In this document: piece by piece, positions 3,769-34,027 of the stretch | Numbering within the stretch: the stretch's first letter is position 1 | Layout of the letters: every line of letters begins with the position of its first letter | NCBI GenBank assembly: GCA_049513975.1 | Contig: JBEKVM010000029.1 | Location: forward strand, 12,783 to 76,782 | Source: Verrucomicrobiota bacterium | GTDB lineage: Bacteria > Verrucomicrobiota > Verrucomicrobiia > Limisphaerales > Palsa-1400 | Length of the DNA: 64,000 nucleotides | Direction: 5' to 3' | Program-made: the position numbers and the translations under genes | Notes under the pieces: generated by a model | What the model saw: the letters and a program-made list of their open reading frames with translations, nothing else | Databases searched by the model: none | What the model was told of the DNA's origin: nothing

Positions 3769-3884
3769 TTTATTGACGTGTCCTGCTTGAAACGCGCGGA
3801 TAAAACCAGCCCGGCGCGGGAATTGCAATGAATTTTTTGGCTTGATTTGGCGTGATTGGAATGGCTCATGTTTTTTGATGAATC

Positions 3885-4505
3885 ATGCCGGATAATTTCG
3901 CCCTGCTGAACGAGCCGCGCCGGCCCTGGCTGGATGCGGCGTTGCTGAAACAAAAGTTTCTCGCCCTTTCGTCTGAAATTCACCCGGACCGCGCGCACGA
4001 GGCGGGGGAAGCGGCACGGGAGGCCGCGACGCGCTGTTTTGCGGAGGTGAACGCGGCCTGGCAATGCCTGCGGGAACCGAAGGAGCGGCTGGGACATTTG
4101 CTGGAATTGGAATTGGGGGCGCGGCCCGCGGACGCGCAGGATGTGCCGGCGGCGGCGATGGATTTGTTTTTTGAAACGGGCCGGATTTGCCGGGAGACGG
4201 ACGCGTTTTTGGCGGCGAAAGGGAAAACCAGCTCGCCAGTGGTCAAGGCGCAAATGTTCGGGCGGGGAATGGAACTGGCCGGACAGTTGAACGGGCTGCA
4301 GCAAGTCATCCAACGGCGGCGGGAGGAGTTGCTGGCGGAGCTGCCGGGTCTGAATGCGGCGTGGGAGGCGGCGCCGGCGGCGGGGACGGCGGAGCGGGCG
4401 GCGGCGCTGCCGCTGGAGTCGCTGGAGCGGGTGTACCGGATGTTGAGCTACATCGCGCGCTGGACCGGACAAATCGAGGAACGGGTGGTGCAGCTTTCGT
4501 TTTGA
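3885..4505 (+). CDS. J-domain co-chaperone (HscB/DnaJ-like)
   Basis: N-terminal J-domain signature with HPD motif (SSEIHPDRAHE) in a 206-aa ORF. Confidence 0.6.
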   Translation: MPDNFALLNEPRRPWLDAALLKQKFLALSSEIHPDRAHEAGEAAREAATRCFAEVNAAWQCLREPKERLGHLLELELGARPADAQDVPAAAMDLFFETGRICRETDAFLAAKGKTSSPVVKAQMFGRGMELAGQLNGLQQVIQRRREELLAELPGLNAAWEAAPAAGTAERAAALPLESLERVYRMLSYIARWTGQIEERVVQLSF

Positions 4506-4613
4506 GCCGCAGGCGGGCAGTCAGGATATAAGGATTATTACTTGAATGTTTGGCAGGGACGTGGTTAACTAACTTTGAAGAGAGAAAGCCCTCGACTTAA
4601 GGAGAGACGCATC

Positions 4614-19781: not shown

Positions 19782-21528
19782 TCATTGCTTTTGGGATTCC
19801 TTCGCCCATGTGTCCTTCAAGGTGATGGTGCGGTTGAAAATGAGATGGCCGGGGGCGCTCTCCTTGTCCAAGGCGAAGTAGGCCAGGCGCTCAAATTGAT
19901 AGCGGCATTCGGGCCTGGCGTCTTGCAAACCCGGCTCGCATTTGGCGGTGACGACTTCGAGGGAGCGCGGGTTGAGGTGTTGTTTGAAATCGCCGGCGGC
20001 GTCGGGTTCGGGGACGGTAAAGAGGCGGTCGTAGAGGCGGACTTGGGCGTCGGTGGCGTGGGGGGCGCTGACCCAGTGAATGGTGCCTTTGACTTTGCGG
20101 GCGGCGTTGGGGCCGCCGGTGCGGCTGTCGAAGTCGGCGGTGCAATGAAGTTGGGCGATGTTGCCGGCAGCATCTTTGACCACTTCATCGCACTTGATGA
20201 TGAAGGCGTATTTGAGGCGGACCTCGCCGCCGGGTTTGAGGCGGAAGAATTTGGGGGGCGGCGCTTCCATGAAATCGTCGCGCTCGATGAACAGTTCGCG
20301 GCTGAAGGGGATTTTGCGGGTGCCGGCGTTTTGGTCCTGGGGATTGTTGAGAGCATCGAGTTGCTCCACTTTGCCTTCGGGAAAATTGGTGATGATGAGT
20401 TTGAGGGGCCGCAGGACGGCCAGGCGGCGCAGGGCGCGCTGGTTCAAGTCCTCGCGGATGGCGTGTTCGAGGACGGCGACGTCGGTGATGCCGTTGTATT
20501 TGGTGATGCCGATGTGGTAGGCGAAATGGCGGAGGGCTTCGGGGGTGACGCCGCGGCGGCGCAGGCCGGAGATGGTGGGCATGCGGGGATCGTCCCAGCC
20601 GGTGACAATTTTATCGTTGACAAGTTGGAGGAGCTTGCGCTTGCTCATGACGGTGTAGCCGAGGCTGAGGCGGGCGAACTCGTATTGATGGGGAAGGGGC
20701 CGGGGCAGATCGAGGCTTTGCAGGAACCAATCGTAGAGGGGGCGGTGGACTTCGAATTCGAGGGTGCAGATGCTGTGGGTGATGCCTTCGAGGTAGTCGC
20801 TGAGGCAATGGGCGAAATCGTACATGGGATAAATGCACCATTTGGCGCCGGTGTGATGGTGCTCGGCGTGGCGGATGCGGTAGATGACGGGGTCGCGCAG
20901 CCAGATGTTGGGGGAGGCCATGTCAATTTTGGCGCGCAAGGTGCGGGTGCCGTTGGGAAATTCGCCGTTTTTCATGCGCTGGAGGAGGTCCAGGTTTTCG
21001 GCAATGGGACGGTCGCGAAAGGGGCTGTCCTGGCCGGGGCGGTCCGGGGCGCCGCGGTATTTGTCGGTGTCGTCGGGGGAGAGGTCGCAGATGTAGGCTT
21101 TGCCTTTTTTGACGAGGGTGACGGCGTAGTCGTAGAGTTGATCGAAATAGTCGGAGGCGTAGAAAGGCTCCTGGATTTCGGATTTCGGATTTCGGATTTC
21201 GGATTTTAAGACGGGCGGGAGATAGAAATCGGGTTTGCCGTTGCTGGTGACGGCTTCGGGGGTTTTGCCTTTGGGTTTGAGGCCCAACCGGTCGCCGGCC
21301 CAGCCGCCGATGAGCCAGTTGACGTCTTCCTGGATGGAGTCCACGTATTCGACGTCTTCCTTGGTGGGATTGGTGTCGTCCATGCGGAGGTTGCAGACGC
21401 CGCCGAATTCGCGGGAAGCGGGTGTGGATTTGGGCATAACGCTTCTCCGCCAGATGGGCGGCGACGATGTCGCGAATGAAATCGGCGGGGGCGGGCGGCG
21501 GAGTTTTATCTGGATTGGGCGTGGTCAT
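19782..21528 (-). pseudogene. glnS: Glutaminyl-tRNA synthetase with frameshift and deletion of the HIGH-motif segment
   Basis: N-terminal frame ends ...[23 protein letters not shown] (about 21426). The body continues in another frame, ...[19 protein letters not shown]... The about 25 aa PEPNGYLHIGHAKS..NFG block of GlnRS is absent. The rest (551 aa) is intact and strongly GlnRS-like, including VMSKRKL. Confidence 0.75.
21173..21207. repeat. (GGATTTC)x5 heptamer repeat inside the glnS body
   Basis: Translates as [14 protein letters not shown] within an about 45-aa insertion relative to canonical GlnRS. Confidence 0.85.
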
Positions 21529-21638
21529 GGTGCGGCGTTAAACATCATGGAGGAATATATCGGTTGTGGTTCTGTCATGGCAAGCCCGCTGGAGCGGATG
21601 GATGTTCGTGGTCAAGGCCGTCAAGGTTCAAAAATGTG

Positions 21639-21668
21639 GTTTGACCGGGTTTGACCGGGTTTGACCGG
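21639..21668. repeat. (GTTTGACCGG)x3 tandem repeat
   Basis: Direct reading. Confidence 0.85.
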
Positions 21669-21801
21669 ATGGGTTCGTTTGGCAGAATTCGACCGCGGCA
21701 GGTCGTGTTAGAGGCGGCGGTTGATTGGCCCGCCGATGGGTTGCGGCCGCGGAGCGAATTGGCCATTTTTTGCCATGTTGAGTCATAAGATTTATTTTTT
21801 T

Positions 21802-21840
21802 GCCTTTATTAACCTTTATTAGCCTTTATTAACCTTTATT
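21802..21840. repeat. (CCTTTATTAR)x4 tandem repeat
   Basis: Direct reading. Confidence 0.85.
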
Positions 21841-21923
21841 GGAATGGGGCCGGCGAATCCGGGCGCAAAGGCCAACGAGTTCAGCGCGGCCAGCCGGGAG
21901 CAAAGGAGTTGAACGACGGATAG

Positions 21924-21955
21924 AAAATGCAGAATGCAGAATGCAAAATGCAGAA
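21924..21955. repeat. Heptad repeat (GAATGCA family)
   Basis: AAAATGCAGAATGCAGAATGCAAAATGCAGAAT. Confidence 0.85.
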
Positions 21956-22069
21956 TTCCGAATCCGCTGCAATCCGCGGTAAAATCCTTGCGGAAAGTAG
22001 TGATGGCAGAGGAGGGAAGATCGTCCCTGTTGAATCGAGTGCTCCGGGATGCCGCGGCACGCTCCCCGC

Positions 22070-22180
22070 CCGCGCCTGCGCTGGCCGCATTCTCCCGGAT
22101 GCGGCCTTGGACTGTGCCTCCGTTTCTCACGCTGACGATTGAACCATAGGTTCTAATTTTTGTCAAGCCCCGGTTTGAAG
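22070..22180 (-). ncRNA. Conserved non-coding block, copy A (candidate promoter plus small RNA)
   Basis: 111 nt whose reverse complement aligns with 56510..56620. The first about 40 nt are identical (CTTCAAACCGGGGCTTGACAAAAATTAGAACCTATGGTT), then about 80% identity. No shared reading frame. Confidence 0.45.
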
Positions 22181-22181
22181 A

Positions 22182-22216
22182 AAATGCAGAATGAAGAATG
22201 CAGAATGCAGAATGAA
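22182..22216. repeat. Heptad repeat (GAATGCA/GAATGAA)
   Basis: AAATGCAGAATGAAGAATGCAGAATGCAGAATGAA. Confidence 0.85.
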
Positions 22217-22393
22217 AAATCGGCTTCCTTGGCGAATGTGACGCGCGACGAGGAAAGAGAACGGAGATGGGTGATTATGCCCCAGTGACGCGCTTTTGAC
22301 AAGTTTGTAAGCACTTACAGCGCAATCATTTGCACTTGAGATAGGGCGAAACCATAGTTTCATAATTCTCATGGCCTCCGGCGGGACACGCGG

Positions 22394-22600
22394 CCCCGAC
22401 GAGTGCATGGTCGTGAAGTCGCTGGATTCCAGCTTGCGCCCGGTGGCCGTGTGCAAACACCCCTTCGCAACATGGAATCCACCGCCATCACCACCAGGGA
22501 TTTGAAGGCATGGAGGGAAACCCGCTTTTGGAGCATCAATCTCGATTTCCACTCTCGCGGAGGGGGAAAAATCAGACGGTGCCATCACTCGCTCTCCGCC
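22394..22600. repeat. R-module copy 1 (about 200-bp non-coding module shared with the tRNA-Pro island)
   Basis: Aligns with 30581..30773 (GTGAAGTCGCTGGATTCCAGCTTGCGCC...CAACATGGAATCCACCGCCATCACCACCAGGGA...GGAGGGGGA.AAATCAGAC). Overlapping ORFs are in different frames in the two copies. Confidence 0.7.
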
Positions 22601-22637
22601 GTCTTGCCGAACGACCGGGACTCGCCTTTATACACAT

Positions 22638-23990
22638 TCAATACACTGTGGGTCGGATACGGTAGAAAGCGTTCGGAAATTGGTTCGTATCTGCCGATAC
22701 ATCAAAAAGCAAGTTGCTGCCCGCCCCCCGCAATTTGGCAACCGGTTGCCAGTTTGCCGCCAACAAATTAGTGGCTCGCTGAAGTTCGTACCAACGAAGC
22801 GGCGAAGTGTTCGACGCGCTCAGATGAAAGTTCGAGTTCCACCCTATGAGCAGGGGCGGACTTGAATTTGTGGGATTATTGCCAAGCATCCACTCTTGCA
22901 CGGTGGTGTATCCATCCGGGTCCGGAACCTGCATTTCCACGCTGTCATTAGTTGACAACCCGTAATAGTTCAACCAGCGGAAAGGGATTCCGTGCGTAGT
23001 TGTTTGCTCGATTGCGCAAATAGAATTGTCGGCTGGATTGAATGCATACAGTACATTCGTGTGGCTATCGAAAGCCATAATAGTCGTCGCAAATGGCATG
23101 CCTGCAATCTCGGTTGCATCACCATGAATCGGAAATGTCGTGGTATCCCAAATCGAGGCCTGCCCAAATGCAACAGTGCCATCGCAGTTCAGTGCGTAAA
23201 CCTGTTCCTGAAATAGACCGAACTGGTCTGAAAAATTCGTTGGATTGAAGAGTATCTGACCATAGGCCAGGCACCGGTTGTCGCCGGACACTGAATAATT
23301 GTCGTAACCCCAACCATAGGGATAAGGGCTATAATACTCGGTATCGTCCAGAGCAATCTGATCAGTGGAAACATCAAAGTCTCCCATTGCGCCGAGATTT
23401 CCATAGTACGTGTACTGCCCAAAGAGGTGAGTTTTATCCGAGAATATGACCATGTGGGTCTTTACGACGGCAAAGCTTCCCAAATCCGCGCCAGTGTCGG
23501 TATTCAGAGAATGCGCGTCGCCTCCATTCCAATCGTCAGATCCCGAGTTGTAGTAAAGCCGGCCCGGTCTGCCGGCGGTCACATTCTCGGCGACGACCGA
23601 TGTAATATACGAAGTAACTAAGGTTTGATTGATGAGCGCCACTACCCCAATGCGCCAAGAGCCGGGCAGCCCGGTTCCTGGTCCCTTATTCGCGATGTAG
23701 AGAAAGTTCCCGGTGCTATCAATGTCGAAGTCCGATGGGTCCTTTCCGACATAAATGCTGTTTTGGATCGATGCAGTCTGAAGATTAATGAAGAGAATTT
23801 CGCTGCCCTGCCGGTTGATGGCATAAACCCACGGTCGATGGGGATCGGGCAGAATTCGCACGACATTCGTGCCCAAGGGAATCTTCTCCGATATTGCCCA
23901 AGTGGCACCTGTCGCGCCACCACAACTGATGAGGAGCATGCCTGCACAAACTACTACTTCCGACATTCGATAAGGGAAATGCTTTTTCAT
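22638..23990 (-). CDS. Secreted beta-propeller (YVTN/lactonase-like) protein
   Basis: Signal-like N-terminus from MKKHFPYRM (ATG at 23990). Noticeably lower GC than the surroundings. Confidence 0.6.
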   Translation of the reverse strand: MKKHFPYRMSEVVVCAGMLLISCGGATGATWAISEKIPLGTNVVRILPDPHRPWVYAINRQGSEILFINLQTASIQNSIYVGKDPSDFDIDSTGNFLYIANKGPGTGLPGSWRIGVVALINQTLVTSYITSVVAENVTAGRPGRLYYNSGSDDWNGGDAHSLNTDTGADLGSFAVVKTHMVIFSDKTHLFGQYTYYGNLGAMGDFDVSTDQIALDDTEYYSPYPYGWGYDNYSVSGDNRCLAYGQILFNPTNFSDQFGLFQEQVYALNCDGTVAFGQASIWDTTTFPIHGDATEIAGMPFATTIMAFDSHTNVLYAFNPADNSICAIEQTTTHGIPFRWLNYYGLSTNDSVEMQVPDPDGYTTVQEWMLGNNPTNSSPPLLIGWNSNFHLSASNTSPLRWYELQRATNLLAANWQPVAKLRGAGSNLLFDVSADTNQFPNAFYRIRPTVY

Positions 23991-24000
23991 ATGTCCGACC

Positions 24001-24147
24001 TGAAGGATGTCGCCGCCAACACCCAAAATCAAACCTTTAATGCGGTTTTTCGTCTCAAATCAACAAAGGGAACAACGGCCTTGCACCAGTCTGGCGGAGC
24101 CTTGGCGCCGAACCGAGCAACGCCGGAAGGCGCTCCCTCCAAAGTGG
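24001..24147 (-). pseudogene. S-module copy 1: remnant of a Rep gene 3' end plus downstream leader
   Basis: Minus-strand translation ERLPALLGSAPRLRQTGARPLFPLLI* matches the Rep C-terminus ERIPALLGSVPRLRQAGAKRLFPLLI* at 31630... The leader up to the next start codon is also conserved. Confidence 0.65.
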
Positions 24148-24411
24148 TTTCTCGAGGTTTTCTGTGGATCTGGTCAGGCAACGGCGGATTTAGGAAGCCT
24201 GCGCGTCTCGCCGAAATTGAGTCCATGGGAAGGAATTGGCGAAGCAGTGGGGCGCGAGACGCACCCCACAGCGACCGGGACGGTCGCGCTCCCAATCCTG
24301 CCATTCTCATTGCCTGAAAGAGGCGGGCCGCGAGGGCGCGGCCCGCGGCACGCGGGGGCGCGCGCGCTCCCAGGAAGCAGGAAATATGTGCGATTAAGAT
24401 TAGGAGTAGGA

Positions 24412-25569
24412 TTAACGGTCGGACTTTAAGCCAAAGAGCCGGCGGTGTTCGAGGATGGCGTAGCGGTCGGTCATGCCGGAGAGGTAGTCGCAGATGGCGC
24501 GGAGCCAGCCGGCCCGACGGGCGCGCTTTTGGCTGGAGACGCCAATTTCCCGGGGATGTTCCAGGTAATAGGCGAAAAGGTCGCCCAGCATGGTGCCGGC
24601 GCGGTTGTTTGGCTCAAAGACGACAGGGCTGGAATAGAGATTCTGCAAAAGGTAGGCGCGGAGTTCGAGGTTCAAACGGCGGCGGCGAAGGCTGTGCTGG
24701 ACCAGGGGATGGGGCTGGAGGCGGACGTCGTCGGCGGATTGGACGCCGGAGGCGAGGATGGCGGCTTCGGTGGTCTGGACGACGTCGCGCACCTGGCGGT
24801 CAATGAGGCAGCGGATGATGAAGTAGCGGCGGGTTTCGTCGGGGAGGCGGGGGTGTTCGGCCAGGACGGCGCGGGAGGCTTCGGAAAATAGTTTGACTTC
24901 GCGGTTGAGTTTTTTTTCGGAGAGGAGGCCGGCTTCCAGGCCGTCATCGAGGTCGTGGCTGCAATAGGTGAGTTCGTCGGCGAGGTTGGCGACCTGGGCT
25001 TCGAGGGAGGGGGATTTTGGGGAGAAGCCGGGGCGGTGGCGGGGATGATCGTAGGGGGATTGGTGTTTGGCCAGGCCTTCGCGGGTTTCCCAGGTGAGGT
25101 TCAAGCCGCGGAAGGCGGGGTATTTTTCCTCGAGTTCCTCGACGATGCGGAGGCTCTGGCGGTTGTGCTCGAAGCCGCCGTGGCCGCGCATCAATTGGTC
25201 GAGGACTTCCTCGCCTTTGTGGCCGAAGGGGGCGTGGCCGAGATCATGGGCCAGGGCGATGGTTTCGGCGAGGTCCTGGTTGAGGTTGAGAGCGCTGGCG
25301 ATGTTGCGGGCGATGGCGGCGACTTCGATGGTGTGGGTGAGGCGGGTGCGAAGATGATCGCCGGTGCCGTTGAGGAAGACCTGGGTCTTGTATTCGAGGC
25401 GGCGGAAGGCGCGGGAGTGGATGACGCGGTCGCGGTCGCGCTGGTATTCGGTGCGCCAGAGGGCGCGGGGTTCGGGGTGGACGCGGCCGCGGGATTGGGC
25501 GCTGAGCTGGGCGTAAGGGGCGAGAGTCTGGCGTTCCCGTTGTTCGAGTTGTTCTCTGGAACAAGGCAT
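24412..25569 (-). CDS. dgt: dGTP triphosphohydrolase-like HD-domain protein
   Basis: RDRDRVIHSRAFRRLEYKTQVF and HDLGHAPFGH motifs. Confidence 0.85.
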   Translation of the reverse strand: MPCSREQLEQRERQTLAPYAQLSAQSRGRVHPEPRALWRTEYQRDRDRVIHSRAFRRLEYKTQVFLNGTGDHLRTRLTHTIEVAAIARNIASALNLNQDLAETIALAHDLGHAPFGHKGEEVLDQLMRGHGGFEHNRQSLRIVEELEEKYPAFRGLNLTWETREGLAKHQSPYDHPRHRPGFSPKSPSLEAQVANLADELTYCSHDLDDGLEAGLLSEKKLNREVKLFSEASRAVLAEHPRLPDETRRYFIIRCLIDRQVRDVVQTTEAAILASGVQSADDVRLQPHPLVQHSLRRRRLNLELRAYLLQNLYSSPVVFEPNNRAGTMLGDLFAYYLEHPREIGVSSQKRARRAGWLRAICDYLSGMTDRYAILEHRRLFGLKSDR

Positions 25570-25587
25570 GGCAGGCCGCCGGCGGGA

Positions 25588-26856
25588 TCAGTTGGCCAGG
25601 AGTTCCTGGACGGAGAAGCCGCGGAGTTCGAAGAGGCGGCGGATGGCGTCCTCGATGAGGTTGTTGGGGCAGGAGGCGCCGGCGGTGATGCCGACGGTGA
25701 TTTTACCCGGGGGCAGCCAGCCGAGGGTCTCGACTTCCTGCTGGAGCTGGAGGTTGTAGTGGCGGATCAATTTGTCGGAGACCATCATGGCGGCATTTTT
25801 GACAAAGTAAGTGGGGAGTTTGGCTTCGCCCATTTCGGCGAGATGGGAGGTGTTGGAGGAATTGTAGCCGCCGATGACGAGGAGGAGGTCCATGGGTTCG
25901 CAGAGCAGTTTTTCGAGGGCGTCCTGGCGTTCCTGGGTGGCGCCGCAAATGGTGTCAAAGAAGCGGAAGTGGCGGTCCAGTTGGCCGGGGCCGAAGCGGG
26001 CGATCATGGCGTTTTTGATGCGGCGCTGGACCTCTTCGGTTTCGCCGCGGAGCATGGTGGTTTGGTTGGCGACGCCGACGGCCTGGAGATGGATGTCGGG
26101 ATCGAAGCCGGCGGAATAAGCGCCGGCGAAGGTGTCGAGGAATTCCTGCTTGTTGCCGCCGTGGAGGATGTAGTTACAGACGTAATCGGTTTCGGCCAGG
26201 GTATAGACGACGAGGTAATGGCCCGGGCCGTCGGCGCCGGCCTGGGAGGTGGTGGCCTTGGTTTCCTCGTGTTTGGCCTTGCCGTGGATGATGCTGGTGA
26301 CGCGTTCCTTGGAGTATTGGCGGACGCGCTTCCAGACGCTCATGACGTCGCCGCAAGTGGTATCCACCAACCGGCAGCCCTTGGCCACCAATTTGGTGCG
26401 GGTGCCGACTTCGGTGCCGAAAGCGGGGATGATGACGACGTCGTCCTCGCGCAGACGATCCAATTCCTGTTCGGTGGGCTTGGGGGAAATGATCTGGATG
26501 CCCATGTTGTAAATCTGGTCGTTGACTTCGGGGTTGTGAATGATTTCGCCCAGGAGATAAATGGGCTGGGGCAGGGGAAAGACATTGCGGGCGGCGTAAG
26601 CGAGGTCAATGGCGCGTTCCACGCCGTAACAGAAGCCGTATTTCTTGGCCAATTTGACGGTGAGCAGGCCGTCGGCGCTGAGGACGTGGCCCTTGTCGCG
26701 AATGCGTTCGACCAGTTCGCTGCGGTAATGGGAGAGAACCTGGGCCTGGACGGCGGCCATGACATCAGGGCGGCGGAGATTGATTTTTTTTGGCGTTGAG
26801 CTGGGGTCTCCGTTGCCACGGCCATTCCCATTCCCATTTTGCGCGTTGTTGAGCAT
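25588..26856 (-). CDS. ispH: 4-hydroxy-3-methylbut-2-enyl diphosphate reductase
   Basis: FCYGVERAI, conserved Cys positions, SSNTSHL motif. Asn/Gly-rich N-terminal extension. Confidence 0.88.
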   Translation of the reverse strand: MLNNAQNGNGNGRGNGDPSSTPKKINLRRPDVMAAVQAQVLSHYRSELVERIRDKGHVLSADGLLTVKLAKKYGFCYGVERAIDLAYAARNVFPLPQPIYLLGEIIHNPEVNDQIYNMGIQIISPKPTEQELDRLREDDVVIIPAFGTEVGTRTKLVAKGCRLVDTTCGDVMSVWKRVRQYSKERVTSIIHGKAKHEETKATTSQAGADGPGHYLVVYTLAETDYVCNYILHGGNKQEFLDTFAGAYSAGFDPDIHLQAVGVANQTTMLRGETEEVQRRIKNAMIARFGPGQLDRHFRFFDTICGATQERQDALEKLLCEPMDLLLVIGGYNSSNTSHLAEMGEAKLPTYFVKNAAMMVSDKLIRHYNLQLQQEVETLGWLPPGKITVGITAGASCPNNLIEDAIRRLFELRGFSVQELLAN

Positions 26857-27022
26857 AACACCGCAAGTTTAGCATGGGTTGGGCGGGTTCAAAGGCTAAA
26901 ATATCGGCGCGCCCGATGAACGGGAATGGGACAAATAGGGCGAATGGGAGGGATCTGGACAAACACGGACGGCCACTTGGGCAGGTTTGTTGGCAAACGG
27001 CAGTGCTTAATGTGGCTGGAAT

Positions 27023-28153
27023 CTATGCCGAAGGGCGTGCGGCAACGCGGGCGGCGACGGCGCGGCAGATGTCGGCGGCGGCGGCGGGGCGGCCCAAGGC
27101 GGCGGCGGCCCGGGCCATGCCGGCGAGTTTTTTGGAGCCGAGAAGCCGGCCCAGACGAAAGGGGAGGTCTTCGACGCGATTGGCTTTGGCGGCGGCGCCG
27201 TGTTCGAGAAGGAAATCGCTGTTGGCGGCTTCCTGGCCGGGAATGGGATTGAGAATGAAGAGGGGTTTGCCCAGGGCCAGCGCCTCGGAGGTGGTCAAGC
27301 CGCCGGGTTTGGTGATGAGCAAATCGGAGACGGCCATGAGTTCGTGCATGTTGGCGACGAAGCCCAGGACGCGGGTGGGATGACGGCGGTCGGAGGAGGC
27401 CAGGTCGCGGCGAAGGCGGTCGTTGCGGCCGGCCACGACGAGGGTTTGAAAGGGGCGTTGGAGCTGATCGAGCGCGGCGAGGATTTGCGCGACCGGCCCC
27501 ATGCCGAATCCTCCGCTGAGAACGAGGAGAATGGGGAGATCGTCGCGCAGGCCAAGCTCTTTGCGCACGAGGGCGGCGTCAATGGGGCCGGAAAATTTTG
27601 CGGAGATGGGAATGCCGGTGACGAGGACCTGGGCGGCGGGGGCGCCGCGGGCGACAAGACGGGCCTTGGTTTCCTCGGCGGCGACGCAATAGAGGTCCAC
27701 GTTGGGGTCCATCCAGAGGGCGTGGGCCTCAAAATCGGTGACGATGCTGACGGTGAGAGGGGGAGGGCCGGGCCACTTTTTGCGGAGTCCGCCGAGGAGT
27801 TCGACGGGGAGGTAATGGGTGCAGAGGACGGCGTCGGGGGCGAATTGTTTGACGAAGCGGGCGAATTTGCGGGAGCTGTTCGAGCCGATGGCGTTTTTCC
27901 AGTGGGCCAGTTTTGCGACGAGGCTGGGGTTGTCCATTGTGTTGAAGACCAGACCCCAGAGTTCGGGGGCGTGGGCGATCAATTTGACGTAGCCATCGCT
28001 ATAGATTTTTTTGTGAAGCGGGGAAAAGAAGGTGAGGAGATCGAGGCGCTGGACGACGTCCTGGGGCCGGGCCTGAAGCCAGGTTTCATGGAGTGCGGCG
28101 GCGGCCTGGAGATGGCCTGCGCCGGCGGTAATGGTGGCGAGGAGAATGCGCAT
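27023..28153 (-). CDS. GT28-family glycosyltransferase (MGDG synthase / UgtP-like)
   Basis: MRILLATITAGAGHLQAA N-terminus and LITKPGGLTTSEALA C-terminal motif. Confidence 0.8.
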   Translation of the reverse strand: MRILLATITAGAGHLQAAAALHETWLQARPQDVVQRLDLLTFFSPLHKKIYSDGYVKLIAHAPELWGLVFNTMDNPSLVAKLAHWKNAIGSNSSRKFARFVKQFAPDAVLCTHYLPVELLGGLRKKWPGPPPLTVSIVTDFEAHALWMDPNVDLYCVAAEETKARLVARGAPAAQVLVTGIPISAKFSGPIDAALVRKELGLRDDLPILLVLSGGFGMGPVAQILAALDQLQRPFQTLVVAGRNDRLRRDLASSDRRHPTRVLGFVANMHELMAVSDLLITKPGGLTTSEALALGKPLFILNPIPGQEAANSDFLLEHGAAAKANRVEDLPFRLGRLLGSKKLAGMARAAAALGRPAAAADICRAVAARVAARPSA

Positions 28154-28296
28154 TAGGTCTGAGGGTTGTAATCGGAAGCCGGTGTTTAGTCCAACCGGAA
28201 AGGGCGGGGCTGGTGGAAGGCGTGCGGGCGTGCGGAACGGGCTGCCGTTGGCCTTGCATCAGTGGAAAGATGTGCCATGATGGAGGGCCGGTCGCG

Positions 28297-28373
28297 CCGG
28301 AGCGTAGCTCAGCCTGGTAGAGCACTTGGTTTGGGACCAAGACGTCGCAGGTTCAAATCCTGTCGCTCCGACC
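28297..28373 (+). tRNA. tRNA-Pro(TGG), canonical, CCA encoded
   Basis: CGGAGCG-TA-GCTC-AGCCTGGTA-GAGC-A-CTTGG-TTTGGGA-CCAAG-ACGTC-GCAGG-TTCAAAT-CCTGT-CGCTCCG-A-CCA. D-loop GG and T-loop TTCAAAT are present. Confidence 0.95.
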
Positions 28374-29637
28374 ATTTTGCCACTTTTGACCCATTGTGAC
28401 AGACAGGGACAAAAGGGGACTTTACCCCCGTAAACAAAGGACTTTTTTCACTTTCCGCCATCACCGGCAAAGTGACAATCGTTGACAGCAAATGACCCGC
28501 TTTGACCAGAGTTTGTGTGTCTAGTTGTGTGTCATCCGCCCCAGGGGTTTCCGCGCGATGGAAGCTCAGTTTCTGAATGGCCTCTTTCAACGGCAGCATT
28601 CGCGCATCGGTGTATGTCTTCGCCGTCTGGCTTGGGTCACGGTGCCTCATCAGCGCCATCCGCACGCGCTCGCTCGGTGTCCCTGGCGCAAGCTGCGTGC
28701 AGAACGTGACGCGGAAGCTGTGGAAGTCCAGCCGCCCGTCACCAGTGTCTTTCCAGTCAATTCCCGCCGCCTGCAAGTCCGCATAAAAGCGTTTGTAACC
28801 GGGGAACATCCCCTTGAAAATCAGTTGGTCCTGACTGCACGACGCGGGCTTGAGCTTCATCAATGCCGCCACAAGGTCAGGATGCAACGGCAGATCATCC
28901 TCGTAATGATTCTTGGAGATAGTCGCAGAGACGGTGATTCTCGGGTCCGCACCATCCAGCACCACGTCAGCCCACCGCAATTGCTTGATTTCGCCTCTGC
29001 GAATGCCCGTCAGCACCGCCAACAAGTAAATCGCCGCACGGCTCCCGGCGACGGCCAGCAGGCGCTGAATCTCCTCTGCCGTGTAAGACCGCCGCGCCCG
29101 TTTCTGGCGGCCTTGCACCCGCAGCAGTTCCACTTTCGCCAGCGGATTCCGTGCGATAAAACCCAAACGCTCCGCCCACTTGAGAAACGCCCGCATTGCC
29201 ACGAGATATTCGTTCAGGGTCTTTGGCGCTTTCTCCTGCTTTTGCCGCCACAGTTGAAACGACTCCGCGTTCACATCTTTGAAGTGTTCCCAGGCGCAAT
29301 CCCTCATCAGCGAGCCGACATAATTTTCCACGCCTTGCACGTATCGTTTCACACAACCGCTGGTTTTAAGCTCTTGGACGAAAACCGCAAAATGCCCCGC
29401 CAGGGGTCTTCCCGCCGCTTCCCGCATTTTCTCCGGCGCAATCAAGCCAACCGATTCTTGACTGTGATCTTTCAATATCTGTTGAAGTTTCTGGTCCGCC
29501 GAGCGCGGTTCCGTGACCTCAAGCGGAATGTCCCTCATCCTGTGTTCGCCGGGAAAGCGGACACGCGCCCGATATAACCGGGCATAAACCACCTTGCCGT
29601 TGCGCCGACGTTTTGGCCGATAAATGTAGGCAATCAT
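28309..29637 (-). CDS. Tyrosine recombinase / phage integrase
   Basis: R..HxxR..Y pattern (HSFRVTF..., LMRHRD...KTYTD). The last about 25 codons are read-through across the tRNA (WSERQDLNL), so the true 3' end is uncertain. Confidence 0.85.
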   Translation of the reverse strand: MIAYIYRPKRRRNGKVVYARLYRARVRFPGEHRMRDIPLEVTEPRSADQKLQQILKDHSQESVGLIAPEKMREAAGRPLAGHFAVFVQELKTSGCVKRYVQGVENYVGSLMRDCAWEHFKDVNAESFQLWRQKQEKAPKTLNEYLVAMRAFLKWAERLGFIARNPLAKVELLRVQGRQKRARRSYTAEEIQRLLAVAGSRAAIYLLAVLTGIRRGEIKQLRWADVVLDGADPRITVSATISKNHYEDDLPLHPDLVAALMKLKPASCSQDQLIFKGMFPGYKRFYADLQAAGIDWKDTGDGRLDFHSFRVTFCTQLAPGTPSERVRMALMRHRDPSQTAKTYTDARMLPLKEAIQKLSFHRAETPGADDTQLDTQTLVKAGHLLSTIVTLPVMAESEKSPLFTGVKSPFVPVCHNGSKVAKWSERQDLNLRRLGPKPSALPG

Positions 29638-29861
29638 ATTTTGCTCCTCTGGGGGAAATTCCCCCTTTGCTCGCGCATCCGCTCAAGAAACGCCTCAATA
29701 TCGCTTTGCATCAATCCCACCGCGCGGCCCACCCTCACCAAATGCGGCAGTTCGCCCCGGTCCGTCATCCGCCGCACCGACCGCACGCAAACACCCAGGC
29801 TGGCCGCAACCTCTCGCAATCTCATAACCCGGTCCAGTTTCTTTTCGCCTTCACCATTCAT
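29634..29861 (-). CDS. AlpA/excisionase-like helix-turn-helix protein
   Basis: MRLREVAASLGVCVRSVRRMTDRGELPHLVRVGRAV.. Overlaps the integrase start by 4 nt. Confidence 0.7.
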   Translation of the reverse strand: MNGEGEKKLDRVMRLREVAASLGVCVRSVRRMTDRGELPHLVRVGRAVGLMQSDIEAFLERMREQRGNFPQRSKI

Positions 29862-29877
29862 TTTTATCCTTTCATAC

Positions 29878-30393
29878 TCAAACCACCAGCCGACTTTCCA
29901 GATACGGCTTGGCCTTCTGCCGGGTTTCCGTGTTGATACAAAACCACTTCGCCCGAAGAATTCTGTCCGCCGACACGACATCCTCTTTCAGGAACAGCTT
30001 GGCACCCAGCCGGCCAAGCGGATTCCCAATGGCCTTGTCAATGTGACTCTCGTAAGCGACCCGGCTCTTGAACAAAAAGGCGAATGCCTCGGATTTCACC
30101 CAATTGGCAATGATCCGCGCGGAAGGCTCGATTGTGTCAAAAAACGCATTCCAACTCTTTTTGGGGTCGTTGAGCGCCTTCGTGATCGTGACGGCGCTTA
30201 ATTTGACGCCCTGTTCTTCCAGCAGGAACCGGCTGATTGCCCGCGCACTCATTCTTTGCGACGCCTCGAAAAGAAACGGGAACATTTCGATCACCAGCCC
30301 GCGATGGGCGGTGAACTCTGTTGATTTTGCGTGCCCGACCAATTTCAGGCCGATGTCAGTCGCACTCGTTGTTTTTTGATGGTCTTGTGCCAT
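29878..30393 (-). CDS. Hypothetical protein (island cargo)
   Basis: 171-aa ORF on the same strand as the island genes. No motif recognised. Confidence 0.45.
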   Translation of the reverse strand: MAQDHQKTTSATDIGLKLVGHAKSTEFTAHRGLVIEMFPFLFEASQRMSARAISRFLLEEQGVKLSAVTITKALNDPKKSWNAFFDTIEPSARIIANWVKSEAFAFLFKSRVAYESHIDKAIGNPLGRLGAKLFLKEDVVSADRILRAKWFCINTETRQKAKPYLESRLVV

Positions 30394-30580
30394 ATTGTTG
30401 GTGATCTTAACACCCTTATCAACCTTGTCAACCCCCTATTTTCAACAATTTTAAACACCGAGACCATGCCGCCACCCCCACCTCTGATAAAGGCATTTTC
30501 CCCGCGGCTCGTTCCCGTGTCGTCATCCGGCTTGCTAAAGGCAAGAAGGCCAAGCCGGATGCCAACACGCGAACGCTCCG

Positions 30581-30773
30581 CCCCGACAAGTGCCTGGTGG
30601 TGAAGTCGCTGGATTCCAGCTTGCGCCCTGTTTCCCCTTCGCAACATGGAATCCACCGCCATCACCACCAGGGAGTTGAAGGCAGCGCGGGCAGGCCGCT
30701 TTTGCGGGTCTCAATGATGTTTTCCGCTGTCGCGGAGGGGGAGAAATCAGACTGTGCCGTCACTCCATCTCCG
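30581..30773. repeat. R-module copy 2
   Basis: See 22394..22600. Confidence 0.7.
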
Positions 30774-30922
30774 AGGCCGCGAGGGACGATAACGCACGGA
30801 TGACGCCTAACACGGAAAGCTGAACCACCGCCGACTCGCGACGTGAGCCGCGTTAGCGAAACGGCAAGCGCCACCGGCGGTTCGCTCCGGCGACTTCGTT
30901 AGCCCACGGTGTCTTCACATTT

Positions 30923-31165
30923 CTAATGTCTCTTCCGCTCCCGGTCATAGTGCAGCTTCGTCGCAAAAGCCGCGACCACCAGAATCGGAACAGTGGCGAG
31001 AAGCCAAGGCAGTTCACGAGCGCCGAAGAGGGCCAGTGCGGCGAAGACGCCGATGACAAAATAGACACTCTCCCGACGATAACAGCACTGGCGATAGCTG
31101 CGACCGGAAGAACAAGCACAAGGCTCAATGAACTTCTTCGCCAGCCATGCCTTCGGACTTTTCAT
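30923..31165 (-). CDS. Small membrane protein with SEC-C-type Cys motif
   Basis: CACSSGRSYRQCC followed by two hydrophobic helices. Confidence 0.45.
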   Translation of the reverse strand: MKSPKAWLAKKFIEPCACSSGRSYRQCCYRRESVYFVIGVFAALALFGARELPWLLATVPILVVAAFATKLHYDRERKRH

Positions 31166-31287
31166 TGCAGTGTGCTTGGTGGCCTAAAGAAAAAAGCTGA
31201 ACCACCGCCGACCCGTGACGTGAACCGCGACAGCAGCACGAAAAGCGCCAACGGCGGTTGGCTCCGGCGACTTGTTTGGCGATGGGG

Positions 31288-31563
31288 TCATGACCTGAGT
31301 TCCGTGATGGCATAATAACCATACCTACCCAGTAAAATAATGGGGAAAACGCATAGGAGGCCTGCAACAACTCGCTGCCACATCACACCGTGGCGTAGCA
31401 CCGGAGCAACAAATAGCAATGCGAGACCGGCAAGTCCAAGATTCTCAAAATACCAAGAATCCGGATTTCTGTAGTCCTTAATGATGTAGCTAATGCGGCT
31501 CCAAAGAAACCACTGAACCGCGATGGCCCCAACGAACGCGAAAAGTGGATAGTTCTTTCTCAT
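31288..31563 (-). CDS. Small polytopic membrane protein
   Basis: 91 aa with three hydrophobic segments, AT-richer sequence. Confidence 0.45.
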   Translation of the reverse strand: MRKNYPLFAFVGAIAVQWFLWSRISYIIKDYRNPDSWYFENLGLAGLALLFVAPVLRHGVMWQRVVAGLLCVFPIILLGRYGYYAITELRS

Positions 31564-31566
31564 CCC

Positions 31567-31722
31567 AGAAGGATGTCGCCGCCGGCACCCAAAATCAAGC
31601 CTTTAATGCCGTTAATGCAGTTGTTCGTTTCAAATCAGCAGAGGGAACAACCGCTTTGCACCGGCCTGCCGAAGCCGGGGCACCGAACCGAGCAACGCCG
31701 GAATCCGCTCCATCCAAAATTC
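31567..31722. repeat. S-module copy 2 (Rep 3' end plus conserved leader)
   Basis: See 24001..24147. Confidence 0.7.
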
Positions 31723-32937
31723 AACGCCAGCAAATAGTTTGACAGTGAAATCCCGCGAGAACAACTGCCCCTTCCGCATCTTCGCCCGTTTCTCCTTCGG
31801 ACAGGTCGCCATGCGGTAACGGCGCATCACCCGGCGCAGTTTCAACGCCTGCCCGTTCGTCAACTCCAGTACATCCCGCCGACCGAGAGGCAGATTCTTG
31901 CGGCCAACAATGCCCCAAAACCGACCCGGCTTCGCGGACCAAATGCACTCGCCAATCTTCGCAACATACTTCTTCGCCGCGTACGCGAAGGCCCCACGCT
32001 TCGAGCCAAGCGTCTGAACCGACGTGCCCGCACGATAATGCTTCACCTCGCCGCTCCCAACCACGTCAAACCAATTCCGCGCAAACCAATTCGCAATCGA
32101 ATCTCCGTTCACCACAGACGGACACTTGCCATGCGGCTCCACACGAATGGCACACCATTCCTCGCGCTCATCCACCAAGGCACTGTGACCCTCCACCCAT
32201 TCGCCCCCGGCCAAAACATCCTCATCCCACACAACCACAAGTCCAATCATTCGGCGGCGCAAACGAACTTGCTCGGTCCGCATGGTCTTCCACTCGAAAC
32301 CCCACGGCACGCCCCAGACAAACGCATGGATATGCGGCGCGATCTTCCCCTTGTTCACCCCGCTTTTGCGAGGTTGAAATTCTAGCTTCCACATCAAACA
32401 GCCGTCAGGAAACCGACGGGCGAACCGCTTTGACATCGTATCAATGTGCCGCTTCACCTGTTCGCCATCCCAGGCGTAACGGTCAAACTCATCAGGATAC
32501 GTCAGACCCGCCATGAACGGCACCGCGCCATCTTCCACCTTCGCCAAGTAATCCAACATCCGCCGCCGTGACGCCGCCGTGAACTCCTCAATTTCGCCAC
32601 GCTCACCACCGCGACGCTCAGGCCCGCGCAAATGTCCCTCAGAACGGCACCGCAATTCCATGAAGCTCGCGTTGCGATAAACTTGCAACATGCCCTTGCT
32701 CGTATTTCGCGGTGAATTATGCACCTTAGACAAGCCAGGGCGAACGCATGTGGTCGGCGGCCAGGCGGCCGGTGAACCGTCCACCTGGCCACCGACCCGC
32801 ATTGCGGCGACAACGGCGGCAGCCTGCTCGAATGTAGTGACCGGGGAGGAATCGAAGGAATCATTGCGCACAATCCACCCCCAAACGCGACGCCCCAAGG
32901 AAAGTTGGCCCTCCCGCATCGTCCGTTGACACCACAT
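31630..32937 (-). CDS. Putative HUH-type rolling-circle replication initiator
   Basis: HUH-like APHIHAFVWG and Tyr motif AFAYAAKKYVAK. The start codon is not resolved. Confidence 0.55.
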   Translation of the reverse strand: MWCQRTMREGQLSLGRRVWGWIVRNDSFDSSPVTTFEQAAAVVAAMRVGGQVDGSPAAWPPTTCVRPGLSKVHNSPRNTSKGMLQVYRNASFMELRCRSEGHLRGPERRGGERGEIEEFTAASRRRMLDYLAKVEDGAVPFMAGLTYPDEFDRYAWDGEQVKRHIDTMSKRFARRFPDGCLMWKLEFQPRKSGVNKGKIAPHIHAFVWGVPWGFEWKTMRTEQVRLRRRMIGLVVVWDEDVLAGGEWVEGHSALVDEREEWCAIRVEPHGKCPSVVNGDSIANWFARNWFDVVGSGEVKHYRAGTSVQTLGSKRGAFAYAAKKYVAKIGECIWSAKPGRFWGIVGRKNLPLGRRDVLELTNGQALKLRRVMRRYRMATCPKEKRAKMRKGQLFSRDFTVKLFAGVEFWMERIPALLGSVPRLRQAGAKRLFPLLI

Positions 32938-33193
32938 TCCGCCGCAGAACCGGCGAGCAAAATGGCTCGCTGTCCGGTTCTGCTCGTTCTATTTCGCCGC
33001 CGTGCCGCCCTGGTATCACTGGCCCCCCTTGTCTGTGGCCGTGCTGGCAATGGCGAGGATTGCCACTTTGAGCGCCGCGTTGAGCCGGGGCCATGCCTTG
33101 ACTACTTGGGACAGGTCATGTAAGGAAGTGACCGGAGTTTGTGAGTCTCCTTGTGAGTCTCGCGTTGTAACTCCTTGATTATCAGCAGGCGGA

Positions 33194-33221
33194 GGCAGGT
33201 TCAAATCCTGTCGCTCCGACC
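33194..33221 (+). repeat. attR: duplicated tRNA-Pro 3' end
   Basis: Identical 28 bp to 28346..28373. Confidence 0.9.
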
Positions 33222-33346
33222 ACTTCATGACCCAGGGCTGGGGTTGGATTACCGGGTCGCCCGATCTGCAAATTCGCTCTTGCAGTTGGGTCGCTTTGAA
33301 TTGACAGCTTGGGAGAGCGAGCTTTTTGGCCCGCCCTCCCGGTGTT

Positions 33347-33931
33347 TTATTCCTTCACGAACAGCCTCCATTCGGGAATGCGGTGGGCGTTGCGGATGAG
33401 GGCGGAGGCCGGCAGCTCCTTGGGCGCGCGCGGCACGCGGAGCAATTTCAAGCCGGCTTCGTGGGGAAGGCGGTTGCCTTTGCGGGCGTTGACGTCTTTG
33501 CCGGCCCAAACCAGATTTTCCCAGGCGTTCTTGCCGCCGCGCGAACGGGGCAGGACGTGATCGAGGCTGCCATCTTCAGGGCGCAGGACGCGGCCGGTGT
33601 ATTGGCAGCGGTTGCCGTCGCGCTCGCGGATGGCGCGGGCGCAGAGCTTCGGGCGCTTCTTGGGCACCTTGGCGTAATTGACCGCGACGATGACCGTGGG
33701 CACACGGACCGGACCGCGGACGGTCCGCACGGCGTTGTCCTGCGGACGAATGGGCAGCGTGATCCACTCGTCCCAGGTCACGGGACGGATGTGGTTTTGG
33801 CCTTCGATGTCCAGAGCGGTCGCCACGTTGGTGGCCATCATGCAGAAGGCCTCCTGCGGCGTGCGAACGTTGACGGCCTGCCAGTTGCGGTTGAGCACCA
33901 GCACGAGCGATTTGTTCAGTATGTCATTCAT
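33347..33931 (-). CDS. HNH endonuclease
   Basis: Start MNDILNKS (ATG at 33931). HNH core CQYTG....LDHVLPRSRGGKNAWENLVWAGKDVNARKGN. Same strand as, and immediately downstream of, the tRNA-like array. Confidence 0.8.
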   Translation of the reverse strand: MNDILNKSLVLVLNRNWQAVNVRTPQEAFCMMATNVATALDIEGQNHIRPVTWDEWITLPIRPQDNAVRTVRGPVRVPTVIVAVNYAKVPKKRPKLCARAIRERDGNRCQYTGRVLRPEDGSLDHVLPRSRGGKNAWENLVWAGKDVNARKGNRLPHEAGLKLLRVPRAPKELPASALIRNAHRIPEWRLFVKE

Positions 33932-33937
33932 AAATTC

Positions 33938-34027
33938 AGTGATGAGTGGAGAGTGGAGAGTGATGAATGAAAAACCCGGCACTCCGCATTTCCCACTCTG
34001 CGCCCTGCACTCCCGACTCTGCATTTT
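33938..34027. repeat. Heptad-repeat hairpin a
   Basis: GAGTGGA/GAGTGAT/GAATGAA heptads face CACTCTG/CACTCCC/GACTCTG heptads. Confidence 0.7.

Follow-up and report, generated by a model that had tools for sequence, protein, structure and literature searches.

The pSAM2-type integrative and conjugative elements of actinomycetes (AICEs) are small, are kept integrated in a tRNA gene and encode a tyrosine integrase and an excisionase (te Poele et al. 2008, PMC2440964). Vectors based on pSAM2 integration insert in a tRNA-Pro gene, and the pSAM2 RepSA protein resembles the Rep proteins of rolling-circle phages (PMC2440964). Host genomes contain several copies, tandem copies and remnants, including one remnant that lacks the N-terminal half of RepSA (PMC2440964). 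Integrons are present in Verrucomicrobia, and intI pseudogenes lie near 15 of 279 clusters of attC sites lacking an integron integrase (CALINs; Cury et al. 2016, PMC4889954). Here, a window of 64,000 nt from a Verrucomicrobiota bacterium is compared with these systems. The window is contig C29:12783-76782 of genome G000, an assembly of 6.05 Mb in 233 contigs that is 92.6% complete. It contains an intact island of 4.9 kb in a tRNA-Pro gene and, upstream of it at 22378-24143, a segment that is probably (roughly 0.78) a relic from the same family of small integrative rolling-circle elements, whose cargo slot holds an integron or its remains in some members. The relic keeps the slot and its landmarks without the mobility genes, the slot varies between near-identical elements, and integron parts occur in the slot.

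The relic and the island share two repeat modules, R and S. In a repeat search over 20000-34000 of the window, both modules occur as direct repeats in the same order with 80-90% identity (R, 22386-22598 and 30573-30773; S, 23999-24143 and 31565-31718). R is made up of three collinear blocks, 22386-22444/30573-30631 (88%), 22460-22530/30634-30704 (90%) and 22536-22598/30711-30773 (83%), and S of two, 23999-24047/31565-31613 (90%) and 24034-24143/31609-31718 (84%). When searched by blastn against the whole genome, the R pair has an E-value of 1.5e-49 and the S pair one of 4e-36. These blocks (83-90%) are congruent with an initial annotation of the window, which had placed R and S in the same order and orientation and had described the upstream pair as a decayed second copy of the element backbone with another cargo gene between the modules. 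The segment is indeed a further copy of the stretch from Rep to R, poor in genes and holding a different one. The annotation had also called both modules non-coding. This holds for R, which is not coding because indels of 13 nt and 1 nt separate the offsets of its blocks, but not for S, which combines codons of the Rep protein (S-a) with an antisense scrap of an integron integrase gene (S-b). The genome-wide BLASTN search that the annotation had proposed gives at least 23 copies of R, nine of a 45-nt part of S (S-b) and three of the Rep-tail part.

The Rep-tail match in S is genuine. Residues 407-435 of the island Rep align to 24056-24143 with 76% identity (tblastn, E 4e-6). In the Rep family alignment, conservation extends through VEFWxERLPKLIG, of which the motif ERLPxLIG is family-wide, and the tail ALLGSxPRLRxAGAxRLFPLLI, followed by the stop codon, is a marker of the island's Rep subtype. 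This tail recurs as an orphan at C49:30082-30196 and in relatives. The initial annotation had read the last 26 Rep residues in S and had let its interpretation depend on the significance of this C-terminal match; the tblastn result and the family alignment both agree with it. A reading of the whole of S, including the Rep tail, as antisense intI was rejected, since ERLPxLIG is genuine Rep sequence and the plus-strand translations of S have no NCBIfam match. Because the Rep family alignment decides this point for S-a, the antisense reading is kept for S-b only.

Apart from Rep residues 407-435, no homolog of Rep or the integrase and no tRNA fragment was found in or beside the relic. It has no Rep, integrase or att sites of its own, and it cannot move by itself because Rep, the integration module and both att sites are gone. 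The whole relic unit is also present in the same-genus genome G020 (C145:7654-9439) with 85% identity, in unrelated surroundings. Homology between the two copies starts at ~22378 and stops at ~24140, and the two sets of ends coincide to within ~5 nt at S and ~30 nt at R. Synteny is lost in G000 around the site of the G020 copy. The closer relative G021 does not contain the unit. At its syntenic site (L075:3364-4032, on G021:C2, corresponding to 21603-24412 of the window) there is an AbrB-type antitoxin/PIN toxin pair together with a 59-nt left half of an R hairpin; the locus has therefore hosted element debris in both lineages. The flanks of the relic are other dispersed repeat families. On the left, 21591-22226 belongs to a separate family with dozens of copies in G000 and in all same-genus genomes, and its motif AGAAAATGCAGAATGCAGAATG is found at 21922 and 22179. 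On the right, two short GC-rich repeats (24211-24299 and 24323-24383) have many genus-wide copies with 85-93% identity.

The only gene of the relic is predicted to encode a lipoprotein with a lipoprotein-type signal (MKKHFPYRMSEVVVCAGMLLISCGG). Full-length versions are present in two of the six genomes of the genus (G000 and G020), and G012, G006 and G021 contain partial or distant matches. Between G000 and G020 the gene has a dS of 0.31, a dN of 0.07 and a dN/dS of 0.22 (dN, nonsynonymous, and dS, synonymous divergence) and contains no stops, so it is functional and under purifying selection. An apparent frameshift in the G020 gene is a run of N. Neutral sites are expected to be roughly 73% identical between the two genomes. 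Set against this value, the segment identities (Table 1) indicate that S and R_ext, the cargo-side part of R, are drifting and that the R hairpin is still somewhat constrained. The initial annotation had described a 450-aa beta-propeller gene of lower GC. The lower GC stands: the kilobase 23001-24000, within the gene, has 50% GC compared with roughly 54-62% in neighbouring kilobases. The fold is less certain. A YVTN propeller in the PDB (1L0Q) matches with E 3e-5, Pfam Lactonase is below threshold and a single-sequence AlphaFold model has a confidence (pLDDT) of 32, so that the protein is possibly a YVTN-type beta-propeller.

Table 1. Positions of features in the relic and in the intact island, given in window coordinates, with nucleotide identity between the G000 and G020 copies of the relic
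Feature	Position	Strand	Basis	G000/G020 identity
Relic: left edge, last piece of variant spacer before the R hairpin (GCCTCCGGCGGGACACGCGGCCCCGAC); leftward sequence unrelated	22378..22399	.	R flank alignments	
Relic: R hairpin, arms 22400-22438 and 22466-22504, loop widened by the 13-nt insertion	22400..22504	.		0.87
Relic: R extension (R_ext), cargo-side part of R	22505..22598	.	83% repeat block	0.71
Relic: cargo gene, 450-aa predicted lipoprotein, C-terminal domain ending FYRIRP, no attC after it	22638..23990	-	ORF list	0.89 (coding sequence)
Relic: S-b, intI relic, codons ~67-88, antisense to cargo gene	24003..24059	+	blastn to G018 intI	0.77
Relic: S-a, stop and last 26 codons of island-subtype Rep (ERLPALLGSAPRLRQTGARPLFPLLI)	24056..24143	-	tblastn, Rep alignment	0.79
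Island: tRNA-Pro(TGG), target of the intact island	28298..28374	+	ARAGORN, Rfam	
Island: attL, within/at tRNA-Pro	28347-28377		97% repeat of 33195-33225	
Island: integration module	28309..30393	-	Pfam, PHROGs	
Island: tyrosine integrase (PF00589)	28309-29637	-	Pfam, PHROGs	
Island: HTH_17 excisionase-like gene (xis)	29634-29981	-	Pfam, PHROGs	
Island: orf171	29878-30393	-	part of integration module	
Island: sigma-70-like promoter TTGACA-16-TAAGAT of the orf171-xis-int operon	30431-30404	-	promoter scan	
Island: I3, second hairpin of the backbone, lying between the orf171 promoter and R	30504..30581	.	inverted repeat	
Island: R hairpin, 39-nt arms	30587..30678	.	inverted repeat, covariation	
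Island: R_ext	30679..30773	.	repeat blocks	
Island: attC after mem80, cores GGCTAAC...GTTAGGC	30805..30903	-	84-86% to attC arrays beside intact IntI	
Island: mem80, cassette gene, small membrane protein	30923-31165	-		
Island: attC after mem91, cores GCCAAAC...TTTAGGC	31182..31280	-	87-90% to attC arrays beside intact IntI	
Island: mem91, cassette gene, small membrane protein	31288-31563	-		
Island: S-b, intI relic, codons ~67-82	31564..31609	+	blastn to G018 intI	
Island: Rep gene, 435 aa, HUH-type motif HIHAFVW, tyrosine motif YAAKKY; last 26 codons are S-a	31630..32937	-		
Island: attR, copy of the tRNA-Pro 3' end	33195..33225	+	97% over 31 nt	

The remainder of S, S-b, is an antisense scrap of 46-60 nt from an integron integrase gene, as judged from its identity to the intact intI of the same-genus genome G018 and from the match of longer copies to an integron-integrase model. 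In blastn, the island copy (31564-31609) is 95.7% identical to the G018 gene over 46 nt (E 5e-15), and the relic copy (24003-24059) is 86.7% identical over 60 nt (L056 1367-1426, E 2.7e-12). Six of the nine G000 copies of S-b are the start of a 280-nt repeat. The opposite strand of this repeat reads MNTNEAVRRLTE...KDVAASTQNQAFNA and matches positions 3-72 of TIGR02249 (E ~6e-9 to 7e-10). Intact IntI proteins of 316-330 aa are found in four relatives, one of them in the same genus, and score 277-281 bits against the TIGR02249 cut-off of 265. The conserved leader that the initial annotation had seen in S corresponds to this fragment, and the short, constant distance between leader and start codon does not hold, as there is a 21-nt indel between S-b and the cargo start codon in G000 compared with G020. 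Relative to intI, the point where the cargo begins is almost identical in three cases: the island, the relic and the metagenomic locus L160. Larger contigs with weak TIGR02249 matches (G019:C8, G006:C46, G027:C407 and G019:C38) were set aside as other recombinases, 24-30% identical to IntI and without attC, R or Rep.

The two small genes of the island are, by their sequence, integron cassettes, each followed by an attC site. The attC-type repeat (D2) has 13 aligned copies of ~99 nt, each behind a small open reading frame (ORF), and its consensus GCCTAAC...GTTAGGC is an attC core pair, from which the cores of the two island sites differ slightly. These sites are imperfect palindromes with RYYYAAC/GTTRRRY ends behind each cassette ORF; both lie within 4 kb, with no intact intI nearby (30805-31609). 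The fold of D2a pairs both ends, and its energy is not exceptional. In the relatives G005, G018 and G023, IntI (277-281 bits) is accompanied by repeats that are 84-90% identical. The order in the IntI-bearing relatives is a homolog of the attR flank, a small PF23343 Rep, IntI convergent with Rep, and cassettes. The order in the island matches, with intI reduced to S-b. The initial annotation had listed two small membrane proteins between S and R; both are there, but they were not recognized as cassettes with attC sites. The cargo gene of the relic is not followed by an attC: there is no D2/attC match in 21400-24420, its stop codon is 39 nt from R_ext, and it does not have the make-up of an integron cassette. 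An Rfam search of 21500-34000 found only the tRNA and no known RNA family in R, S or D2.

Further cassette loci in G000 carry a deleted intI allele, in which 75 N-terminal codons are fused to the final few codons and to the spacer behind the gene. There are six (C141:2650-3400, C17:8400-8710, C146:180-450, C98:160-440, C66:17250-17600 and C106:650-920), each with an attI-like GTTAGCC core and then cassettes that encode, for example, SMI1/KNR4-like, NTF2-like and small membrane proteins. Copies of attC alone are found on C131.

The slot extends from the Rep stop codon to R, and 23 slots contain at least 20 unrelated contents. The sister genome G021 has an orthologous island in the same tRNA-Pro gene, with 97% identity in the integrase, 95% in Rep and 96% in the R hairpin. 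Its slot holds 2.5 kb of unrelated DNA that lacks both attC and S-b. A family member beside a tRNA-Val gene (G020:C159) has a 3.4-kb slot with a 708-aa secreted repeat protein, and in G018:C47 the Rep tail and R are only ~350 nt apart. Integron relics are present in a minority of slots (L133, L160 and L161). A variable slot between conserved flanks, as the initial annotation had proposed from two copies, is therefore borne out by the orthologous island and by the catalogue of what lies between R and Rep. The known contents comprise small membrane proteins, secreted proteins of the repeat or propeller type and candidate defence genes, and toxin-antitoxin pairs adjoin orphan R copies. A nucleotidyltransferase/HEPN-like pair lies beside an orphan R on C19 of G000. 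Cargo proteins of different slots have in common a C-terminal domain that ends in F(Y/F)R. It occurs in a 624-aa Asp-box-type repeat protein (G000:C56:3262-6000, gene at ~3743-5617), a 154-aa protein, the 708-aa repeat protein and the relic lipoprotein, and the loci also include L077:2122-4248 and 22638-22900 of the window. This domain might serve secreted cargo as a shared signal for sorting or anchoring.

R always has the slot on one side and the orf171-xis-int operon promoter on the other, and it forms a hairpin, as the initial annotation had suggested. When folded as single-stranded DNA, the island hairpin has energies of -30.4/-32.2 kcal/mol and z-scores of -6.7/-6.5, and none of 200 shuffled sequences is as good. 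In an alignment of 23 genomic R copies, RNAalifold predicts 24 pairs, eight of which have compensatory changes on both sides. Paired cells make up 94.7% of this alignment, compared with 86% in shuffled alignments (0 of 500 reach the observed value) and 31-57% when the partner is slid. Since 518 of 552 pair cells are Watson-Crick and few G-T pairs occur on either strand, a DNA hairpin fits better than an RNA; this does not tell which strand is used. The relic hairpin retains 23 of 24 Watson-Crick pairs, and its fold is no longer exceptional (z -0.5). R_ext is found only in a subfamily of R copies. The neighbouring hairpin I3 (-25.4 kcal/mol, z -4.6) accompanies most metagenomic copies of R. The R inner stem tracks the Rep type and not the integrase type: the elements on C29 and C56 are 94% identical in both the integrase and orf171 and 49% identical in Rep, and their inner stems differ. 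Replicons with G2P-type Rep proteins and the intergenic regions of filamentous phages have hairpin-rich origin regions. On position, conserved structure and this analogy, R and I3 are most likely a replication or transfer origin region for Rep. R was also considered as an attC-like site and rejected, as no RYYYAAC/GTTRRRY cores are present at the base of the hairpin. In the locus L133:1392-1860 (Ga0326728_10002202), a truncated intI (residues 33-168) lies in the slot with a partial second R-like hairpin directly after it, which suggests recombination between elements at or near R.

The intact island contains a tyrosine integrase, an excisionase and direct att repeats of the tRNA 3' end, the parts of an integrative element. 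Rep, the two small membrane-protein genes, orf171, the excisionase-like gene and the integrase are all on the minus strand. Along this strand the family layout is attR, a small ORF, an HUH Rep, the cargo slot, the R region, I3, the promoter, orf171, the excisionase, the tyrosine integrase and attL. At least eight copies of the family are present in G000, on C56, C26, C62, C71, C89, C190 and C209 in addition to C29, together with many fragments. The order of Rep, R and int, mapped by tblastn and blastn, is identical on C29, C56, C26, C62, C71, C190 and C209. Scanning metagenomes with a 23-nt R motif gave at least 120 matches, from peat and soil, of which 80 loci were fetched. Rep is on the expected side and strand in 19 of these and the int module in 18, and the sole exception to the fixed layout, for Rep and for the int module alike, is a tandem array. 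A scan of named genomes with Rep gave only two Rep-bearing relatives, both same-genus metagenome-assembled genomes (MAGs); the named relatives are Verrucomicrobiota MAGs of soil and peat. Neither a Rep relative nor the R 23-mer was found in viral contigs.

The integrase reading frame crosses attL into the antisense of the tRNA-Pro gene (28309-28374), and its last ~22 residues are host tRNA sequence. The G020 tRNA-Pro gene also gives these ~22 residues in tblastn. The adjacent 6 kb in G020 consist of ordinary chromosomal genes and contain no homologs of int, xis or Rep. Family members occur in tandem on the metagenome contigs L138, L149, L150, L158 and L160, where the Rep/attR side of one abuts the int side or R of the next. 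These resemble the tandem accretion described for AICEs.

If 22378-24143 is a relic of this family, its history may be outlined as follows. In part of the family the slot holds an integron, in which intI is convergent with Rep and the cassettes run toward R, and the ancestor would have carried such an integron. Cassette traffic by IntI would have filled and emptied the slot. Family members resident in one genome would likewise have exchanged slot contents by way of their conserved flanks, Rep and R; we infer that cargo turnover proceeded by both routes. The intI gene would have decayed afterwards and left S-b in both window copies. The relic keeps the last 26 Rep codons, the intI scrap, one cargo gene and R, with the rest gone. 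The low dN/dS of the cargo gene shows that the host retained the passenger and let the vehicle decay.

Several points weigh against this explanation. No intact IntI was found in G000, where no TIGR02249 match above the cut-off occurs anywhere in the 92.6% complete genome, and IntI is never found inside one contiguous complete element, the IntI contigs of relatives being only 2.5-13 kb long. In the relic, the cargo gene is not a standard cassette, since no attC goes with it, yet it directly abuts the intI scrap. The island Rep scores 21.2 bits against the PF23343 (ORF2/G2P Rep) cut-off of 27.8 and has no PDB or NCBIfam match, although HIHAFVW and YAAKKY are present and two other Rep types of the family exceed the cut-off (31.1 and 36.5 bits). 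The G020 unit shares its ends with the relic but not its flanks, which plain decay does not predict. In the main rival explanation, R, cargo and S form a discrete unit that the Rep of an intact family member moves in trans, from an R-type site to another R-type site or to the Rep-tail end, carrying off the DNA in between as rolling-circle plasmids, IS91/ISCR elements and Helitrons do. On this view 22378-24143 is no dead DNA but a cassette that can be mobilised. The two units are 85% identical in unrelated flanks, their ends agree to ~5 nt and ~30 nt, and a hairpin lies ~20 nt from one end, as in rolling-circle transposons with their terminal hairpins. In these two orphan copies, the R hairpin is 87% identical compared with 71-79% for the near-neutral R_ext, S-b and S-a; orphan R copies outnumber intact elements; and the truncated intI of L133 lies directly against a partial hairpin resembling R. 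However, the relic ends have no target-site duplications or terminal inverted repeats, the Rep-tail breakpoints vary between relics (residues 389, 402 and 409), the flanks are full of other dispersed repeats able to drive rearrangement, only two occurrences of the unit are known, and Pfam does not place Rep among the Y2 transposases of the IS91 type. Trans-mobilisation of the unit is accordingly judged quite unlikely. The related proposal that the R hairpin is the start and stop site of the HUH Rep, which in trans would excise, copy and reinsert the DNA between direct R-type sites, is unlikely too. If true, it would explain the hypervariable slot, the many orphan R copies and the presence of the same unit, without mobility genes, in unrelated surroundings in two species. 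The Rep-integrase family would in that case also be a vehicle, not described before, that moves integrons between soil Verrucomicrobiota.

Two further readings concern the modules themselves. R and S could be generic dispersed repeats, of the miniature inverted-repeat transposable element (MITE) or repetitive extragenic palindrome (REP) kind, that flank two unrelated loci by chance, an outcome that the initial annotation had named as fatal to its proposal. R is indeed dispersed, with many orphans among its copies beside ordinary chromosomal genes, and S-b is itself repeated nine times. The order relative to Rep and int is nevertheless fixed, with the same orientation, in every intact G000 copy and in 19 (Rep) and 18 (int) metagenomic loci; S-a is Rep coding sequence and S-b intI coding sequence; and chance does not give the composite Rep-tail/intI junction common to both window copies. 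Nor does R have the features of a MITE or REP (terminal inverted repeats and a target-site duplication, no fixed neighbours), since its neighbours and orientation are fixed in intact elements. The generic-repeat reading is contradicted by these data and is highly improbable. It is unlikely that S-b was kept as a functional cassette promoter, equivalent to Pc, and is not a mere scar. The Pc promoter of class 1 integrons lies inside intI. The scrap adjoins the leading cargo gene of the island, of the relic in both G000 and G020, and of L160, it contains TTGATT-17 nt-CATCCT in the cassette direction, and the 5' 280 nt of intI survive at six more cassette loci. These hexamers are weak, however, a sigma-70 scan finds no promoter in either S copy, the divergence of S-b between G000 and G020 is near neutral (77% identity against ~73% expected), and its spacing to the start codon varies by 21 nt.

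The relic reading makes R and S landmarks of an element family that is abundant in Verrucomicrobiota of soil and peat and apparently undescribed, with Rep-integrase members of 5-7 kb. Searches with R and the Rep tail can locate the family's cargo slots, so that their contents can be catalogued. Verrucomicrobiota integrons are not confined to large chromosomal arrays but also occupy the slots of small replicons that insert in tRNA genes; this would give cassettes a route of travel. A passenger gene can outlive its vehicle. Current understanding is not overturned by the findings on the relic and the island. A literature search turned up no account of the element family, nor of integrons occupying a slot of this sort.

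Compared with known systems, the island slot qualifies, on sequence, as a CALIN accompanied by an intI pseudogene (PMC4889954): a pair of attC sites is spaced 377 nt apart, a small gene precedes each, and an intI relic adjoins them. It differs from these clusters in that the array lies inside a tRNA-inserting Rep-integrase element and in that no more than 46-60 nt of intI are left. The segment at 22378-24143 is outside the definition, because it has the intI scrap but no attC. The likeness to IS91/ISCR elements and Helitrons consists of a putative HUH protein at one end, a hairpin near the other and the capture of neighbouring genes. Unlike these, the island is bounded by tRNA-derived att repeats and carries an integrase, its Rep has no Y2_Tnp or Zn_Tnp_IS91 match in Pfam (no Y2 transposase or IS91 zinc domain), and there is no characteristic target tetranucleotide.

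In working principle, the intact family elements are closest to the pSAM2-type AICEs, with which they have in common tRNA insertion, an integrase and excisionase, a putative rolling-circle Rep, tandems and remnants. They differ in that their Rep is probably of the ORF2/G2P family, their host is a member of the Verrucomicrobiota and the slot downstream of Rep can hold an integron. No FtsK-like domain was found in the six scanned island proteins (int, xis, orf171, mem80, mem91 and Rep; the small ORFs upstream of Rep were outside the scan), and since no FtsK-type transfer gene is among the scanned genes, the elements are not counted as AICEs. Integrative mobilisable elements (IMEs) encode an integrase together with a rolling-circle-type Rep or a relaxase. 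They share with the family a small size, an integrase and excisionase, one putative HUH-type protein, a hairpin region that is possibly an origin of transfer (oriT) or of replication, and variable accessory genes. No helper conjugative system or oriT was identified here, and Rep is a candidate relaxase. The intact elements look more like small IMEs than like AICEs. All parts of the locus are of known kinds, namely a relic integrative rolling-circle element and a degraded integron.

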